Below are positions 5,189 through 63,484 of a stretch of 64,000 nt of DNA, piece after piece. Both the position numbers and the translations under genes were made by a program. The stretch's first letter is position 1. The number at the start of each line of letters is the position of its first letter. The notes under the pieces were generated by a model, which worked only from the letters and a program-made list of their open reading frames with translations, searched no databases and was not told where the DNA came from. The DNA lies in contig CALQZS010000001.1 of the NCBI GenBank assembly GCA_943349945.1, forward strand, positions 51,339 to 115,338. The letters are read 5' to 3'. This stretch comes from Candidatus Nomurabacteria bacterium (lineage in GTDB: Bacteria; Patescibacteriota; Minisyncoccia; Phycocordibacterales; SBAW01).

Positions 5189-5476
5189 CTATTTTCTTTT
5201 CTTGCGGACTTTTTTGGTCGGCACCCCTTCTTCGGGCCATCCGCCATAGTAATTCCACCCCAAAGCCACAGCAAGGCGAAACAGCGTGTATGCATGGGGC
5301 TTTCTGGTAATCCCCTGAGCAAAGTTGCTCACTGTCGCCGGACTCAAGCGCGCACTGTGCGCCACATGACCCCAGTTGACTCCGCGCTGACCATAAGCCC
5401 TGAACAGACGTCCACGCAGGTCGTCTACCCATTCTTCAAAATCAGATTCGTACGGCACGGGCATCTTCCGGGTCAT
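5189..5476 (-). CDS. helix-turn-helix DNA-binding protein, hypothetical
   Basis: Predicted start at MTRKMPV with a GGAG-like RBS. HTH-like segment LSPATVSNFAQG and a basic C-terminal tail (KKVRKKRK). Confidence 0.45.
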   Translation of the reverse strand: MTRKMPVPYESDFEEWVDDLRGRLFRAYGQRGVNWGHVAHSARLSPATVSNFAQGITRKPHAYTLFRLAVALGWNYYGGWPEEGVPTKKVRKKRK

Positions 5477-5751
5477 AGTAGCCCACTCCCCCCTGGAGCA
5501 AAGGCCCATACAACAGCCTCCGGTCCTTGCCGTCCTTTGCCCATACAGTAGACGATGACATCGTCCACAGTAGGGACAGTAGTCTCCCTTTCTTCCAGGA
5601 ATTCGGTCCCCTCGGGGTTCATCTTCCTACCATTTGCAGTATGGAAGAAGAGCCCACGGTGAAAGAGTCTGACCCCAAGGAAACCGAACCCTCCTCCGCT
5701 TCTGTTGGGGTAGAAGCGCACTACTCGCGCGCGTCCTATGGTTGTGTCCAT
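5473..5751 (-). CDS. hypothetical small protein (92 aa) upstream of the HTH gene
   Basis: Internal Met of ORF 5473..5928. The upstream part of that ORF lies in AT-rich promoter DNA. Its stop abuts the start of the HTH gene. Confidence 0.3.
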   Translation of the reverse strand: MDTTIGRARVVRFYPNRSGGGFGFLGVRLFHRGLFFHTANGRKMNPEGTEFLEERETTVPTVDDVIVYCMGKGRQGPEAVVWAFAPGGSGLL

Positions 5752-5920
5752 TAAAAAGAACTCACGTACACCACCTGATTTTCTTTGAACCCAAGCATTC
5801 TGCAAAGGTCTGGCGGCAAACAGACAATACAATTTATATTTAGATATGTCAAATTTCTCAACAACTGGACAGTTTGTCTTAAATATGCTATAATTAAACG
5901 CAGGGAGTAAGGAGGTAAGA

Positions 5921-6400
5921 TTGCACACACTAAAACACTACTGGCTGGGCGCTAACTATGCCCTATACCTGGCGCTCAACGGGAGCATCGACATGGGGTA
6001 CAAAGACCTGAACATGGCTATAGGTACGCTCCAGGCTGTACCAGGCATCCGACACATTCTGCGCAACAAGATCCGCGGGTGGGCTACGCTGGCAGCAGCA
6101 AAGACTACCAGCCACAAGGCCGCAAGCGCACATGAAAAAACGCTTGCGTACATCCAACTGACCTGGGCGCATATTCGCGCCCACTCAACGAGAGCCGATA
6201 CCGAGAAGTCTCTCATGTCGGCACGAAACTTGGTACCCTGGATAACCACAAACACAAAGGAAGAGCGTTTGTGGTATGCCGACAGCCTGAAAAAGATCGG
6301 CGACCTCCACATGGCGATGGGCGGAGTGTATGAGGCGCTTGCCCCAGCATTCTACCAAGAAGCCACTCGCGAAAGAGCAGCCGCCGGACAACAGGCCTAG
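5921..6400 (+). CDS. hypothetical protein
   Basis: Strong SD (AAGGAGG) 7 nt before a TTG start, with a TATAAT -10 element upstream. 159 aa with no recognised motif. Confidence 0.55.
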   Translation: MHTLKHYWLGANYALYLALNGSIDMGYKDLNMAIGTLQAVPGIRHILRNKIRGWATLAAAKTTSHKAASAHEKTLAYIQLTWAHIRAHSTRADTEKSLMSARNLVPWITTNTKEERLWYADSLKKIGDLHMAMGGVYEALAPAFYQEATRERAAAGQQA

Positions 6401-6464: not shown

Positions 6465-6857
6465 TTACTGTGCAAACCAGCTTGTATGCCACTGCTGCAT
6501 CATTTCAATTTCTTTTGTTTGTGCCGCAATTATATCGTTACCCAGTTTTTGTAGCTCGGAACGCTTGGTCCCTGCAATTAATACTTTCGACATCTCTATA
6601 GCGCCTTGGTGGTGCACTATCATCCCTTCCAAAAATGCCTCGTCGAGCTCGTCCCCTGTTTTGCCACTTAGCCCCATCATCATGCCACCCATCGCACCAT
6701 GCATGCCAGACTGCGCATCACGAGACTCCATACGCCAGCCCCATTTGTCATGCATACCATCCCATCTGTCTGATTTGTCTCCTACCACATACCCAAACAG
6801 CCCGCCCACCAGTAACGCGCCCGCTGCTACAAGCAGCATTTCTTTTTTTATCTGCAT
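6465..6857 (-). CDS. DUF305-family metal-binding protein, membrane-anchored
   Basis: N-terminal TM segment and the characteristic HHQGAIEM motif. Confidence 0.75.
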   Translation of the reverse strand: MQIKKEMLLVAAGALLVGGLFGYVVGDKSDRWDGMHDKWGWRMESRDAQSGMHGAMGGMMMGLSGKTGDELDEAFLEGMIVHHQGAIEMSKVLIAGTKRSELQKLGNDIIAAQTKEIEMMQQWHTSWFAQ

Positions 6858-6903
6858 ATGCCTCTAGTATACACCCGCCACACAAACCAAACCCGCCTCC
6901 CTC

Positions 6904-6942
6904 TACGAAGGTCAGTCCTTCGTCGAAGGACTGACCTTCGTA
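6904..6942. repeat. perfect palindrome (core 35 nt: cgaaggtcagtccttcg|tcgaaggactgaccttcg), copy 1
   Basis: Exact self-complement. An identical 35-mer occurs at 30898-30932. GGGATAAC-type DnaA-box-like motifs follow at 6951-6985. Confidence 0.9.
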
Positions 6943-6994
6943 AGCCAAGATGGGGATAACTTTTTTGTGGGATAATTAAAGGCTTTTGTTTATT

Positions 6995-7015
6995 TGTGAC
7001 CTCACCGGGAATCAG
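6995..7015. repeat. direct repeat of the tRNA-Glu 3' end, 175 nt downstream of that tRNA
   Basis: tgtgacctcaccgggaatc here versus tgtgaccccaccgggaatc at 7170-7188 (1 mismatch). Confidence 0.7.
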
Positions 7016-7171
7016 CTGCACGAAATTGTTTAATTTTCATGGTCACAAGTCAAATTTTGTCGTCACAAAATTCGCTCGCGACCCCGGCTCGCGATTTTGC
7101 AAGTGCAAAACATCGCTACGCCCGTCCCAAAAGCAGAAAACCTGCCGCAGGGCAGGTATTTCTGTCTTTTG

Positions 7172-7243
7172 TGACCCCACCGGGAATCGAACCCGGATTA
7201 ACGGCTTGAAAAGCCGGCGTCCTAACCGTTAGACGATGGGGCC
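7172..7243 (-). tRNA. tRNA-Glu (anticodon TTC)
   Basis: Cloverleaf GGCCCCA...CTTTTCAAG...GGTTCGATTCC...TGGGGTCA. CCA is not encoded. Confidence 0.85.
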
Positions 7244-7327: not shown

Positions 7328-7414
7328 GGAGAGGTGGCTGAGTGGTCTAAGGCACCGGTTTCGAAAACCGGCATGGGGGAAACCTCATCGAGGGTTCAAA
7401 TCCCTCCCTCTCCG
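7328..7414 (+). tRNA. tRNA-Ser (anticodon CGA)
   Basis: GGAGAGG acceptor stem, anticodon loop TTCGAAA, long variable arm, and T-loop GGTTCAAATCC. Confidence 0.9.
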
Positions 7415-7420
7415 CAAGTA

Positions 7421-7583: not shown

Positions 7584-7604
7584 CAAATCCCTCCCTCTCC
7601 GCAA
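7584..7604. repeat. exact 21-nt direct repeat of the tRNA-Ser(CGA) 3' end (caaatccctccctctccgcaa)
   Basis: Identical to 7397-7417. It lies 187 nt downstream of the tRNA, at the left edge of a low-GC island. Confidence 0.85.
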
Positions 7605-9764: not shown

Positions 9765-10603
9765 TGGATTTCAAAGACAGAGTCATCCTCTACCACGGCA
9801 ACTGCCTCGACGGCTTTGGCGCGGCGTATGCTGCCTGGAAAAAATTTGGCGACTCCGCAAGTTATATTGCAGTCTTCCATGGCGACGCACCACCTACAGG
9901 ACTTGAGGGTAAGGAGGTATACATCGCCGACTTTAGCTATCCAAAAGAGCAGCTACTCGAGCTGGAGAGGCAGGCAAAGCGCCTGGTCGTGCTCGACCAT
10001 CACGAAGGGGCAAAGGGGTATGTCGAGCTTGTTCGCGAGCACATCTTCGACAACGACCGCTCGGGCAGCGGCATCGCGTGGGAGTATTTTAACCCCAACA
10101 TTCCCCTGCCTCGCCTACTTGCCTACATACAAGACGGCGACTTGTGGCGACACAGCCTGCCGCAGTGGCGCGAAGTTGGGGCATATCTAAGCACCGCGGC
10201 ATTTACCTTCGAAACCTTTGACACCCTCGCCATAACATTTGCAGACGATGTGGAGTTTGAAAAAATAATCCAAAAAGGCGCAGCCTTTGCCGAGTATCGC
10301 GACTACCTGTGCCAAAAGTTTATCGAGAACGCAGAAGAGGTGCAGCTGGACGAGTTTAGTGTGCTTGCCGTCAACACGCCGCGGCTTTTTAATTCTCAAG
10401 TGGGCAACCTGTTAGCACAGAAGCATCCACCCTTTGCAATTGTGTGGTATCCAAGTGATAAAGATTGGCATTTTTCGCTCCGCGGCACAGGCGAAGTAGA
10501 CTTGGCTGCTGTGGCACAGCGCCGCGGCGGCAACGGCCATCACAATGCGGCAAGCTTCCGTATCCCCTTTGGACAACCATTCCCGTTTACTCGCAAAGGT
10601 TAG
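9764..10603 (+). CDS. nrnA: DHH/DHHA1 phosphoesterase (NrnA-like nanoRNase/pAp phosphatase)
   Basis: Motifs VLDHH and GGNGHHNAASF. The ATG overlaps the tRNA-Val CCA by 1 nt. Confidence 0.8.
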   Translation: MDFKDRVILYHGNCLDGFGAAYAAWKKFGDSASYIAVFHGDAPPTGLEGKEVYIADFSYPKEQLLELERQAKRLVVLDHHEGAKGYVELVREHIFDNDRSGSGIAWEYFNPNIPLPRLLAYIQDGDLWRHSLPQWREVGAYLSTAAFTFETFDTLAITFADDVEFEKIIQKGAAFAEYRDYLCQKFIENAEEVQLDEFSVLAVNTPRLFNSQVGNLLAQKHPPFAIVWYPSDKDWHFSLRGTGEVDLAAVAQRRGGNGHHNAASFRIPFGQPFPFTRKG

Positions 10604-23096: not shown

Positions 23097-23490
23097 CCCC
23101 GCTTTTGGCGGGGCGTCTACAATATCTAGCGCGCGCGTCTGTAAGCCGAGTTCTGTCTCCGCCGGTTGGCGGAAGCAACAATTTATCTAGCTCGGGCGTT
23201 ACCGCCCGAGTCAAGCGGCACTCCCACACAAGGTGGGCACGGCCTTGCACTTGGACAAGGATTTAGCTCCGACACCCCGAAGGGGTCGGAGTCCCGGTTT
23301 ATTACGTCGGGACCGTTTCACTCCCACTGAAGGGACTCGTCTCTGTTCGCACCTCTGGTGCCCGCTAGCAGCACCCGATGGGGATTACCCACTGCCTGTC
23401 TGCACTCCACATTTCTGTAGAGGCAAGTGCTCGGACTTTCCTCTCTGACTATTCGTCAGAGCTGTTACTCGACGCGCTCTCTATATTGTA
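23097..23490 (-). ncRNA. rnpB: RNase P RNA (bacterial type)
   Basis: On the minus strand: P4 region GAGGAAAGTCCGAGCAC, GGGAGTGAAACGG, ACAGAACTCGGCTTACAG, and P1 pairing between the 23471-23490 and 23120-23140 regions. A hairpin follows at 23095-23116. Ends are approximate. Confidence 0.75.
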
Positions 23491-23929
23491 CCACAATTTT
23501 TTGCCCAACGCCAATGCCCGCCGCGGCAATATAGCCCGCAGGAACCTCCAGCACATAGCGCGCAGGCGCGTGTGGATAAAAAATCTTGGGGTAGGTATTG
23601 GGAGTAACATTTGGCCATACGGTCACAATCATCCCGTCGTCATCTGCCCAAATAATATCAATCGCAAATCGCATATCCTTCATCCAAAAACCCCACTTTC
23701 CAACTTGTGGAAACACAAACAGCATGCCGCTCCCTTGGGCGAGCGACTCCCGCCCAGAGAGTCCTTGTTGGCGCTTTGCCGGAGTATCTGCAACATCCAC
23801 CACCAATGTGTTACTACCGACAGTGATGCGTTCTGCTGTAGGCGCGGGCGTATGCTGCACTTGAAATACGCCCCACACAAGCAAGGCGACAGCACAAAAA
23901 ACAATTAATCCGAGTATATATTTGATCAT
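23465..23929 (-). CDS. DUF192-domain protein, membrane-anchored
   Basis: MIKYILGLIVF anchor and MLFVF...WMKDMRFAIDIIW motifs. The last ~9 codons overlap the inferred rnpB 5' end. Confidence 0.65.
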   Translation of the reverse strand: MIKYILGLIVFCAVALLVWGVFQVQHTPAPTAERITVGSNTLVVDVADTPAKRQQGLSGRESLAQGSGMLFVFPQVGKWGFWMKDMRFAIDIIWADDDGMIVTVWPNVTPNTYPKIFYPHAPARYVLEVPAGYIAAAGIGVGQKIVVQYRERVE

Positions 23930-26893: not shown

Positions 26894-27007
26894 AAACTTT
26901 CTGCTGAAAGTTTTATGCTCCGGCGTTCGAATCTCTCACGCAAAGTACGCAGGTACTTTGCTCGCCTCTCGCAAAATCAAAACGCCCGTTTTGGGCGTTG
27001 GATTTTG

Positions 27008-27092
27008 CGGAGGCGGAGAGATTCGAACTCTCGGTGGGTTGCCCCACACAGACGTTCCAGGTCTGCGCACTAGACCACTATGCGACGCCTCC
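27008..27092 (-). tRNA. tRNA-Ser (anticodon GGA)
   Basis: GGAGGCGTCGCATAGTGGTCTAGTGCG, anticodon loop CTGGAAC, long variable arm, GAGTTCGAATCTC. CCA is not encoded. Confidence 0.85.
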
Positions 27093-29197: not shown

Positions 29198-30847
<1,650 letters not shown>

Positions 30848-30897
30848 CTAGTGAGTGAGTGAATAAAAGGCTAAAAAGTTATCCCCAGTTCTCTCAA

Positions 30898-30932
30898 CGA
30901 AGGTCAGTCCTTCGTCGAAGGACTGACCTTCG
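30898..30932. repeat. perfect 35-nt palindrome, copy 2 (identical to 6906-6940), in the groES-groEL spacer
   Basis: Exact match to copy 1. Flanked by gttatcccca (30879-30888) and tgtggataac (30944-30953), which are DnaA-box-like. Confidence 0.9.
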
Positions 30933-30937
30933 GGTGG

Positions 30938-31321
30938 TTAGTTGTGGATAACTGCGAGAATGCTGCTTTCGGGCAAGATGTAGTACTCTACCCCGCCCAC
31001 CTTTATTTCGTCGAAGCCATACTTAGAGAACATCACTTTGTCGCCAACCTGGACCCCCATAGGCACTAGTTCGTTGTCGTCGCCGCGGCGACCGGGACCC
31101 ACCGCCACTACGGTGCCGTGTTCCGGTTTTTCTTTTGCACTGTCGGGGATAATAAGCCCAAACGAAGTCATCTCTTCGGGAGCTTGGGGCTTGATGAGTA
31201 CGCGGTCGCCCATAGGCAACACGCCCAACTCACCAAATCGACTTGTAGTAGAGGTAACTTTTTTAATGACCTGCTTTTTTGCACCACTGCGCGCGACAAC
31301 TTTTTTCTTAGTTTTTTTCAT
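30938..31321 (-). CDS. groES: co-chaperonin GroES with ~35-aa basic N-terminal extension
   Basis: GroES core (RVLIKP...GTVVAVGPG...GDKVMFSKYG) preceded by MKKTKKKVVARSGAKKQVIKK. Confidence 0.9.
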   Translation of the reverse strand: MKKTKKKVVARSGAKKQVIKKVTSTTSRFGELGVLPMGDRVLIKPQAPEEMTSFGLIIPDSAKEKPEHGTVVAVGPGRRGDDNELVPMGVQVGDKVMFSKYGFDEIKVGGVEYYILPESSILAVIHN

Positions 31322-31459
31322 AGCGAAAAAGCATTAGGAACTTGAATAAACGGGCTTTTTCTACACCCTAAAATCGCATTAAATATAGACAAAAATTGCC
31401 CACAGTCAAGGACATCGCTGGTTTGCGCACAGGCCATACCCGTGCTATATTGCTTGGCA

Positions 31460-39542: not shown

Positions 39543-39650
39543 AGGCTTGTGTGTATTAGTTAGTAGTAATATACACTATTGTAGCATCTATTTTTACAAA
39601 CAATACACAAGATACACAAATCTGTGGACAACTGGCGGCATAAAAATAAA

Positions 39651-39678
39651 GGCCGAGAAGTTTTGCAACTTCTCGGCC
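39651..39678. terminator. intrinsic terminator (ggccgagaagtt ttgc aacttctcggcc) with a T-run in minus sense
   Basis: 12-bp stem, located downstream of the minus-strand small ORF. Confidence 0.65.
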
Positions 39679-39690
39679 TCATGTGTCGCC

Positions 39691-63221: not shown

Positions 63222-63242
63222 TTGCTGCCAGACTAGGATTCG
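63222..63242. repeat. exact 21-nt direct repeat of the tRNA-Gln 3' end (ttgctgccagactaggattcg)
   Basis: Identical to 63411-63431, with an offset of 189 nt. Confidence 0.8.
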
Positions 63243-63413
63243 GTCACGAATCACTAACTATTTTACTTCGGCACCTCGTAAAATACTAAGTGTTCTCGAC
63301 CCCGACTCAAAAATTCATTCCCCGAACGAATTTTTTCCGTCCTTCGAATCCTCAACTTCAAGCAGATTAGCGCACAGAAAAACCGCCCTCTCGGGCGGCC
63401 ATCTGTGCGCTTG

Positions 63414-63484
63414 CTGCCAGACTAGGATTCGAACCTAGATAAACAGATTCAGAGTCTGTTGTCCTACCATTAGACGATCTGGCA
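63414..63484 (-). tRNA. tRNA-Gln (anticodon CTG)
   Basis: U1:A72 acceptor (TGCCAGA / TCTGGCA), anticodon loop CTCTGAA, GGTTCGAATCC. CCA is not encoded. Confidence 0.85.

Follow-up and report, generated by a model that had tools for sequence, protein, structure and literature searches.

A small palindromic module in the groES-groEL spacer of a Candidatus Nomurabacteria bacterium and the inverted doubling of its hairpin

Described intercistronic stem-loops and small palindromic repeats

The groESL mRNA of Agrobacterium tumefaciens is cleaved between groES and groEL at an intergenic stem-loop described in work cited in PMC3989490, and a weaker groESL intercistronic stem-loop of Mesorhizobium loti is noted there as well; such spacer hairpins are thought to set unequal groES and groEL transcript levels (PMC3989490). 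According to a further report, stem-loops govern how the mRNA of an operon with regulated subunit stoichiometry is processed (PMC10311766). Among repeated elements, Correia elements are described as able to bind RNase III and to be cleaved or protected, thereby affecting adjacent genes (PMC2649163).

The DNA analyzed here, hereafter the window, is a 64-kb stretch from a Candidatus Nomurabacteria bacterium, and all positions refer to it. Its groES-groEL spacer contains a long palindrome belonging to a repeated unit termed module M. Like the stem-loops of Agrobacterium and M. loti, module M places a hairpin in the spacer of a bicistronic operon. It differs from them in having an unrelated sequence, a repeat at a second locus and an overlap with the last groES codons; close relatives lack it or have something else in its place, and cleavage is in this case a prediction. 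The likeness to Correia (Neisseria), ERIC, REP/BIME and REPIN elements (REP elements carry a conserved 5' GTAG tetranucleotide) lies in the short imperfect palindrome with inverted ends, the intergenic or intra-operon position and the presence/absence polymorphism among strains; as with those repeats, transcription along with the adjacent genes would let module M form a long hairpin. Unlike them, module M is much smaller (~60 nt), was found at two loci as against tens to hundreds, carries neither a target-site duplication nor an IHF site, and occupies two sites that are both conserved across species. Module M works most like the small palindromic intergenic repeats and the intercistronic stem-loops, and it falls in no named family.

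The palindrome, module M and its second locus

Both chaperonin genes lie on the minus strand, groES at 30938..31321 (127 aa, C-terminus ...AVIHN, TAA stop at 30938-30940) and groEL at 29198..30844 (548 aa). They were assigned from the ORF list and from Pfam matches obtained on identical loci (PF00166 Cpn10 for groES, PF00118 Cpn60_TCP1 for groEL), and in the case of groES from homologs as well. The spacer between them is 93 nt long (30845-30937), and the palindrome reported in it by the original prediction was confirmed as 35 nt, perfect, at 30898..30932 (copy 2; no strand assigned), with the sequence CGAAGGTCAGTCCTTCG-T-CGAAGGACTGACCTTCG. It is nested: each 17-nt arm is a small hairpin itself (CGAAGG, 5 bases, CCTTCG), and the whole consists of the 17-nt hairpin CGAAGG-TCAGT-CCTTCG doubled in inverted orientation. 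The identical 35 nt recur at 6906-6940, and a shuffle control for this recurrence (33-mer search) returned 0 matches in 100 shuffles. The window's spacer was found identical in 8 independent assemblies, and 2 further Logan contigs agreed with it over their extent, both ending inside the palindrome; the palindrome is therefore no assembly artefact.

Two 10-mers bracket the palindrome, GTTATCCCCA at 30878-30887 and TGTGGATAAC at 30943-30952. They are complementary at 9 of 10 positions (10 of 11 when the next base is counted), and by our own estimate the chance of such complementarity at a fixed symmetric position is ~1e-5. The inverted 10-mers of the original prediction are thus real, with coordinates one base lower than it gave. 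Their placement in the spacer held for GTTATCCCCA only; on the coding strand, TGTGGATAAC is the groES end, GTT ATC CAC AAC TAA (V-I-H-N-stop), and so represents the last four groES codons. The DnaA-box match claimed for it was borne out, the reverse complement of this 10-mer containing the exact consensus TTATCCACA.

Comparison of its copies shows the palindrome to be the core of an imperfect-palindromic intergenic module of ~60 nt, module M. The parts of the module, defined from relatives, are in order a C-rich tract, the 17-nt hairpin, a linker of ~10 nt, a box and a run of T5-7; the hairpin consensus is YRAAGG-(TCAGT or ACTGA)-CCTTYR, the linker TAAGnnAAAC and the box TGKGGATAAY. The two copies in the window are homologous in inverted orientation, and the palindrome and, ~10 nt beyond it, the exact 15-mer TGGGGATAACTTTTT recur at both loci with the same spacing. 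The exact 10-mer box TGGGGATAAC occurs only twice in the window, each time beside the palindrome.

Read along the minus strand, the groESL region runs from the groES end GTTATCCACA (30943..30952), comprising the V-I-H-N codons with the exact DnaA-box consensus; in predicted RNA folds this segment is the 5' arm of an outer helix, with the module box as its partner. The same V-I-H-N codons were found in relative L032, where the box is lacking. The 5' side of an internal loop, ACTAACCACC (30933..30942, minus strand), follows, and takes in a short C-rich tract as well as the stop codon of groES. Beyond the palindrome lie the 10-nt linker TTGAGAGAAC between hairpin and box (30888..30897, minus strand; relatives read TAAGAAAAAC), the module box TGGGGATAAC, which is the 3' arm of the outer helix (30878..30887, minus strand; relatives read TGTGGATAAC), and a T5 run directly 3' of that helix, which closes the module (30873..30877, minus strand). 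Every relative, whether it has module M or not, largely keeps the groEL leader AGCCTTTTATTCACTCACTCACTAGATT (30845..30872, minus strand). The module lies 5 nt past the groES stop and 28 nt upstream of the groEL ATG, and homology ends sharply at the T-run.

The second copy (locus 2) adjoins a DUF305-family gene at 6465..6857 on the minus strand (PF03713), and its palindrome (copy 1, 6906..6940, no strand assigned) is identical to copy 2 and sits upstream of that gene. On the plus strand, it is preceded by the C-rich left flank of the module, AAACCCGCCTCCCTCTA (6889..6905), and followed by the linker TAAGCCAAGA, the box TGGGGATAAC and T6 (6941..6966), after which comes a second box, GTGGGATAAT (6967..6976, plus strand). 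This second box is a direct repeat confined to locus 2, and is present in the window, L038 and L041 and absent from L036/37. Relatives of locus 2 were located via the DUF305 protein. The palindrome is doubled in L041, with 1 mismatch; L038-40 carry a single hairpin, and L036/37 carry a single hairpin of the CTTACAAAGG variant.

The surroundings of locus 2 differ among these relatives. In L036/37, a Zip permease gene has its stop codon 15 nt before module M, and Zip and YibE/F separate the module from DUF305; the sequence behind the Zip stop codon in L036, AAACCCCACCCCCTTA, is homologous to the C-rich left flank in the window. The other side of the module continues the native 3' flank of tRNA-Glu (GGTCAC-AAAAG...). 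The ancestral setting of locus 2 was probably the region between convergent tRNA-Glu and Zip, from which subsequent insertions beside the tRNA, together with the loss of Zip/YibE_F, would have led to the arrangement in the window. Since module M follows the groES stop and lies in the 3' flanks of tRNA-Glu and Zip, it is associated with gene 3' ends at both loci. At locus 2, no gene lies downstream in the direction of the module, in the window or in L038.

Across the window plus ~230 kb of DNA from related loci (~290 kb altogether), a profile of module M matched two loci only. Module M was not found in viral contigs, where the 16-mer hairpin alone occurred at about chance frequency. Rfam 15 covariance models gave nothing at gathering thresholds at both loci, and at E up to 10 returned chance-level matches far below gathering. 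Public collections were scanned with the doubled-hairpin form only: a degenerate doubled-hairpin pattern recovered no further copy of the window's palindrome from one genome per species and JGI metagenomes, and returned only analogous doubled hairpins in other CPR-like contigs and coding repeats in high-GC organisms.

Spacer types in relatives and the origin of the doubling

By its GroES homologs alone, e.g., that of Candidatus Adlerbacteria (67% identity), the organism falls among CPR (Candidate Phyla Radiation)/Parcubacteria-like bacteria, and syntenic groESL loci were taken from relatives with 66-91% GroES identity. Their spacers differ in length and content. In L044/45 and L043 (75-76 nt) the spacer contains module M, and its 17-nt hairpin is single; the L044 box TGTGGATAAC is perfectly complementary to the groES end, and the arms AGTTATCCACA / TGTGGATAACT of that relative pair perfectly over 11 bp. 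The L042 spacer (70 nt) contains module M with the inner hairpin partly deleted, the L032/33 spacer (56 nt) only the hairpin CTTACAAAGG-ACTGA-CCTTTGTAAG without a box, the L030/31 and L034/35 spacers (87-89 nt) an unrelated insert bearing another hairpin, and the L047/48 spacer (42 nt) no hairpin. The window, at 93 nt, has module M with the doubled hairpin. Across all spacer types, the ~25-30 nt before the groEL ATG are largely conserved. The GroES end V-I-H-N accompanies the module-type and hairpin-only spacers, and V-I-N-K or V-I-Q-K the spacers with the unrelated insert or with none.

A groES/groEL distance tree placed L034, a carrier of the unrelated insert, nearest to the window, and grouped L030, L032 and L044, whose groEL genes are 91-92.5% identical and which yet have three different spacer types. 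Spacer types are thus incongruent with the groES/groEL tree and module M is absent from close relatives, which indicates that it is dispensable; from the same distribution, the spacer together with the last groES codons behaves as an exchangeable, dispensable cassette. This is a clean small example of the spacer in a highly conserved operon swapping inserts between close relatives, along with the last groES codons. Comparison of the relatives' groES-groEL spacers, which the original prediction had proposed, showed the palindrome to be absent from them, its place being taken by the single-hairpin module, the hairpin alone, an unrelated insert or nothing. This absence was one of two observations named beforehand as speaking against the reading; the other, a CIRCE element upstream of groES, was not found. 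As judged from these loci, the 35-nt palindrome is specific to the window's lineage, the doubled form being absent from the relatives' groESL spacers.

Sequence comparison shows the 35-nt palindrome to be a lineage-specific inverted doubling of the 17-nt hairpin of module M. In this genome the hairpin is doubled in inverted orientation at both loci. Inverted duplication of any hairpin S-L-S' yields S-L-S'-n-S-L'-S', which is the nested form observed. Template switching at quasipalindromes and hairpins is a known mutational mechanism (PMC7202029, PMC9435742), and the doubling may have arisen from replication template switching at the hairpin and then been homogenized between the two copies. The hairpin loop occurs in both orientations among the copies (TCAGT or ACTGA), and the doubled form is able to collapse to either. 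The window's two loci are alike in their doubling, which is identical, and in the TGGGG form of the box, while in the other groESL copies the hairpin is single and the box reads TGTGG; these shared features point to exchange between loci within one genome. The groESL linker TTGAGAGAAC matches poorly to both the locus 2 linker and the relatives' groESL linker, so a single conversion tract does not explain everything. The locus provides a clean small example of a long perfect palindrome arising by inverted doubling of a short hairpin, and of two repeat copies staying alike within one genome.

Predicted action on the groESL transcript and alternative readings

The spacer RNA folded at -38.8 kcal/mol (z = -5.1 vs. 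shuffles). The predicted inner hairpin has 16 bp in the window and 6-10 bp in relatives. In four of the four module-type spacers, the outer helix, formed by the box and the last four groES codons, had a predicted probability of 0.8-1.0 and abuts U5-6. At groESL this helix has an AU-rich base and a 10x10 internal loop that interrupts it; the inner hairpin stands ~20 nt from the T-run. At locus 2, the outer helix is shorter (4-5 bp, between the C-rich tract and GGGG of the box), with ATAAC between the helix and the T-run; pairing consequently does not account for the conservation of the whole box.

Substitution patterns were examined for support of pairing. For the inner stem, one compensatory pair (G:C to A:U) was observed in three copies, and was not above shuffle controls. 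Among the groESL box substitutions, 1 of 3 retains pairing and 2 of 3 break it. The box and its C-rich partner vary together between loci, as CCACA/TGTGG at groESL and CCCCA/TGGGG in L036, and this joint change hints at structural constraint. The inner hairpin is lost in L042, and the box in L032. Long intergenic hairpins without U-runs are numerous elsewhere in this genome; their location in 3' regions, like the module's own position past the groES and Zip stops and in the 3' flank of tRNA-Glu, suits a 3'-end element.

The most likely reading, with moderate confidence, is that module M would serve as a weak terminator inside the operon, or else as a hairpin that blocks ribonucleases or affects processing and stability; the groESL cleavage of Agrobacterium (PMC3989490) and the operon stem-loops of PMC10311766 are parallels. 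It would act at the RNA level, with the inner hairpin forming on the groESL transcript and the box pairing with the last four groES codons, closing a long interrupted hairpin with U5 directly after. Weak termination, or a ribonuclease barrier or processing, would then uncouple groES and groEL mRNA levels. Module M resembles intrinsic terminators and intra-operon attenuators in that an outer helix is followed by U5 at groESL and in its position just past stop codons; it differs in its AU-rich base, in the helix being interrupted by the 10x10 loop, and in the distance of 20 nt between the GC-rich inner hairpin and the U-run. The inner stem is without following U, and a terminator scan did not call the groESL module, which is no canonical terminator; canonical terminators after tRNAs in this window look unlike module M. 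A real terminator ahead of the essential, highly expressed groEL would be costly, which is an argument against the terminator reading. Should this predicted effect on the RNA hold, it would amount to a lineage-specific tuning of the GroES:GroEL ratio, of local rather than general interest. An RNA thermometer was rejected, as the outer helix kept a predicted probability of 0.77-1.0 across 10 to 55 C in the thermodynamic model.

The foremost alternative is that module M has no function and is a selfish or neutral small palindromic insertion (a MITE-like or REP-like remnant) copied or converted between its two sites, with recombination among strains shuffling the spacer alleles. This is possible, if doubtful. 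It is favored by the presence, absence and alternative inserts at the same site in close relatives against the gene tree, by the sharp end of homology at the T-run, by the decay of parts in L042 and L032, and by the terminal inverted repeats of the groESL copy of 10-11 bp (10/11 bp in the window, 11/11 bp in L044; at locus 2 the inner arm of the inverted repeat is cut down to CCCCA or CCCC). The two loci of one genome would also have the same variant in common, as with the doubling in the window; the CTTACAAAGG stem was found in the groESL spacer of L032 and in the locus 2 copy of L036/37. Against an insertion, the module was found at just two loci in about 290 kb and not in viral contigs, and no direct repeat that could be a target-site duplication flanks either copy; compared with the 42-nt spacer, module M substitutes for sequence rather than simply inserting. 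Weak evidence comes from a Pfam scan of a few neighboring ORFs, which gave no transposase, regulator or RAYT candidate. Several species have both loci occupied, and box and T-run were kept where the flanks had fully diverged, a pattern that resembles constraint. The claim that a composite repeat had hitch-hiked into the operon proved essentially right, in that a defined module is present at two loci in the lineage.

It is unlikely, though conceivable, that module M is a sequence-specific recognition module, with a hairpin at a fixed distance from TGKGGATAAY, retained in several species at its two loci. In one version, a CPR-specific recombinase or transposase would have module M as its smallest mobile unit and the groES 3' end as its recurrent target; in the other, module M would bind a single factor, perhaps DnaA, that links groEL expression to the metal-homeostasis locus DUF305/Zip in bacteria lacking CIRCE.

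Somewhat more improbable still is a protein-binding operator, at which a dimeric regulator on the 17-bp palindrome or the box would co-regulate groEL and DUF305/Zip in place of CIRCE/HrcA. The statement that no CIRCE element is visible upstream of groES was upheld: with up to 3 and also with up to 4 mismatches allowed, CIRCE (TTAGCACTC-N9-GAGTGCTAA) matched nowhere in the window or at the loci of five relatives. HAIR, CtsR and RheA motifs, with mismatches allowed, were likewise not found near groESL in the window and relatives, and no hrcA-like match was obtained in the 64-kb window. The lack of these motifs, the operator-like geometry of a 17-bp palindrome with a 5-bp center, and the conservation of the primary sequence of box and linker between both loci would suit an operator. 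Module M also shares with the CIRCE/HrcA operator an inverted repeat associated with groESL; it is unrelated to CIRCE in sequence, has a spacing of 5 nt (9 nt in CIRCE), and is not conserved in relatives. CIRCE lies between promoter and start codon, whereas module M lies downstream of groES, away from the sigma-70-like promoter TTGACT-16-TATATT upstream of that gene (31382..31409, minus strand); no operator-type inverted repeat was present between this promoter and the ATG. In L036/37 the module stands just past the Zip 3' end, where there is no promoter region, and no promoter-like site overlaps it. The orientation of the loop with respect to the box also varies, TCAGT or ACTGA, and the groESL operon lacks the module in close relatives. 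The proposal of a substitute heat-shock operator was not supported, module M being downstream of groES, absent, truncated or replaced in close relatives, and incongruent with the tree.

The 10-mers are very unlikely to be functional DnaA boxes serving DnaA titration, transcriptional control by DnaA or an origin-like site. The relaxed DnaA-box consensus is TTWTNCACA. The exact box TTATCCACA at 30943-30951 speaks for such a role, as do L044, with two perfect boxes in inverted arrangement, and locus 2, with two box-like 10-mers 16 nt apart beside an A/T run. That exact box, the sole one, lies inside the groES coding sequence, and L034, without module M, already has 8 of the 10 bases of the groES box (GTTATCCAGA). 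The spacer-side box and all boxes of locus 2 read TTATCCCCA (or TTATCCCAC), and TTATCCCCA departs from the consensus at position 7; the covariation of the box with its pairing partner favors structure over recognition by DnaA. In the whole window, 15 DnaA-box-like 9-mers (one mismatch) were found vs. 10.7 expected, which is no enrichment, and non-coding DNA of the window contained no cluster of at least 3 consensus boxes. GC skew was negative window-wide save one near-zero bin (+0.006), with no switch, and tblastn with an E. coli DnaA C-terminal sequence, a weak test, returned no dnaA homolog in the window. The resemblance to DnaA-box clusters (oriC, datA, DARS) is limited to one exact 9-mer and several one-mismatch 9-mers beside an A/T run; unlike those clusters, the locus has no set of at least 3 consensus boxes, no nearby dnaA/dnaN and no skew switch, its exact box is coding and its conserved variant is off-consensus. 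An oriC or DnaA cluster was rejected on the box counts, the GC skew and the tblastn search for dnaA, all of them negative. A DnaA-related site was not supported, and the match is, as far as sequence goes, apparently incidental to the V-I-H-N coding sequence and its complement. A tempting reading of the locus as a DnaA box or as a novel heat-shock operator in a CPR bacterium is thus removed as unsupported.

Just as improbable is a promoter inside module M that would drive groEL and, in the case of locus 2, a divergent transcript: the second box of locus 2, TGGGATAAT, resembles an extended -10 element and the module stands 28 nt upstream of the groEL ATG, but consensus scans were negative in both copies, the GATAAC of the shared box is without the final T of the -10 hexamer, locus 2 has no gene downstream that way in the window and L038, and relatives without module M retain the same groEL leader.

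Duplicated tRNA ends

Four of the eight tRNA genes in the window (Glu, Ser-cga, Ser-gga and Gln) lacked a CCA-like terminus, and in these same four genes the last 17-21 nt were duplicated 159-174 nt downstream with 0-3 mismatches. The end duplicate of tRNA-Glu (7171-7243, minus strand) was located at 6996-7013, that of tRNA-Ser-cga (7328-7415, plus strand) at 7584-7604, that of tRNA-Gln (63413-63484, minus strand) at 63222-63242, and that of tRNA-Ser-gga (27007-27092, minus strand) ~174 nt downstream. A canonical terminator lay between each tRNA gene and its end duplicate, and the intervening segments shared the motif GAGnCnGGGTCGnG. The T-arm was also present in antisense (e.g., GAGAGATTCGAAC) in the segments that follow the Ser and Gln genes and in the tRNA-Glu segment of L038 (like L036 and L037, a relative's DUF305 locus); there was none in the window's tRNA-Glu segment. 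The elements were polymorphic, as the tRNA-Ser element of the window was absent from L036 and L038, and they can occur in tandem (L038 tRNA-Glu, duplicates at +158 and +266). Neither Rfam nor ARAGORN made a call over them. They resemble very small integrative elements targeting tRNA genes, or att scars; alternatively, they are possibly a tRNA-linked structured RNA. Their novelty may exceed that of the groES-groEL palindrome.

Three ORFs (106, 151 and 159 aa; 5189-6400) separated a thioredoxin-reductase-like gene from the DUF305 gene. None had a Pfam match, and a single short ORF occupied their place in L036-L038. This stretch may be a small inserted island.

The groES-groEL spacer and doubled hairpins

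In some relatives, the groES-groEL spacer was filled by an alternative insert of ~63-65 nt that carries a hairpin of its own (GAGCAGCTTCGC...), at 10388-10450 in the groESL loci L030/L031 and at ~9009-9073 in L034/L035 (10391-10455 in L035). These two versions were 83% identical, and no further copy was found in the rest of the fetched DNA. Both Logan contigs matching the window's spacer (L007 and L009) ended exactly within the palindrome (...GGACTGAC), probably reflecting a de Bruijn graph break at its 35 nt.

A nested doubled hairpin of the same kind as the palindrome, with another loop (CCGAAGG-CTAAA-CCTTCG-N-CGAAGG-TTTAG-CCTTCGG), was present in other CPR-like contigs, at 6883-6915 in L012/L027/L029 (Candidatus Moranbacteria MAG), 2425-2457 in L017, 1003-1035 in L028 and 8655-8687 in L026. 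This 33-mer was identical save for the central base in three unrelated contexts (GC 0.38-0.51), and in L012 it directly followed a stop codon. Doubling of GAAGG/CCTTC hairpins may be recurrent in CPR-like bacteria.

DnaA-box-like 9-mers and the GroES N-terminus

In all relatives, the lexA-like gene was preceded by a conserved non-coding block (...ACAAACAATACACAAGATACACAAATCTGTGGACAAC...; window ~39578-39632; L030 ~1770-1830; equivalents in L032-L035, L043 and L044). The DnaA-box-like 9-mer TTGTCCACA lay within this block, and in the window a perfect hairpin (39650-39679; stem of 13 bp) came after it. The block may correspond to the promoter of lexA or to its SOS operator region. Apart from the exact DnaA-box 9-mer in the last codons of groES, the only one in the window (TGTGGATAA, 23571-23579) preceded the RNase P RNA gene (minus strand, 23126-23480) by ~90 nt.

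GroES of this clade carried a lysine-rich N-terminal extension of ~30 residues (MKKTKKKVVARSGAKKQ...; residues 1-30, window 31232-31321), common to all homologs whose sequence was read (34/34).
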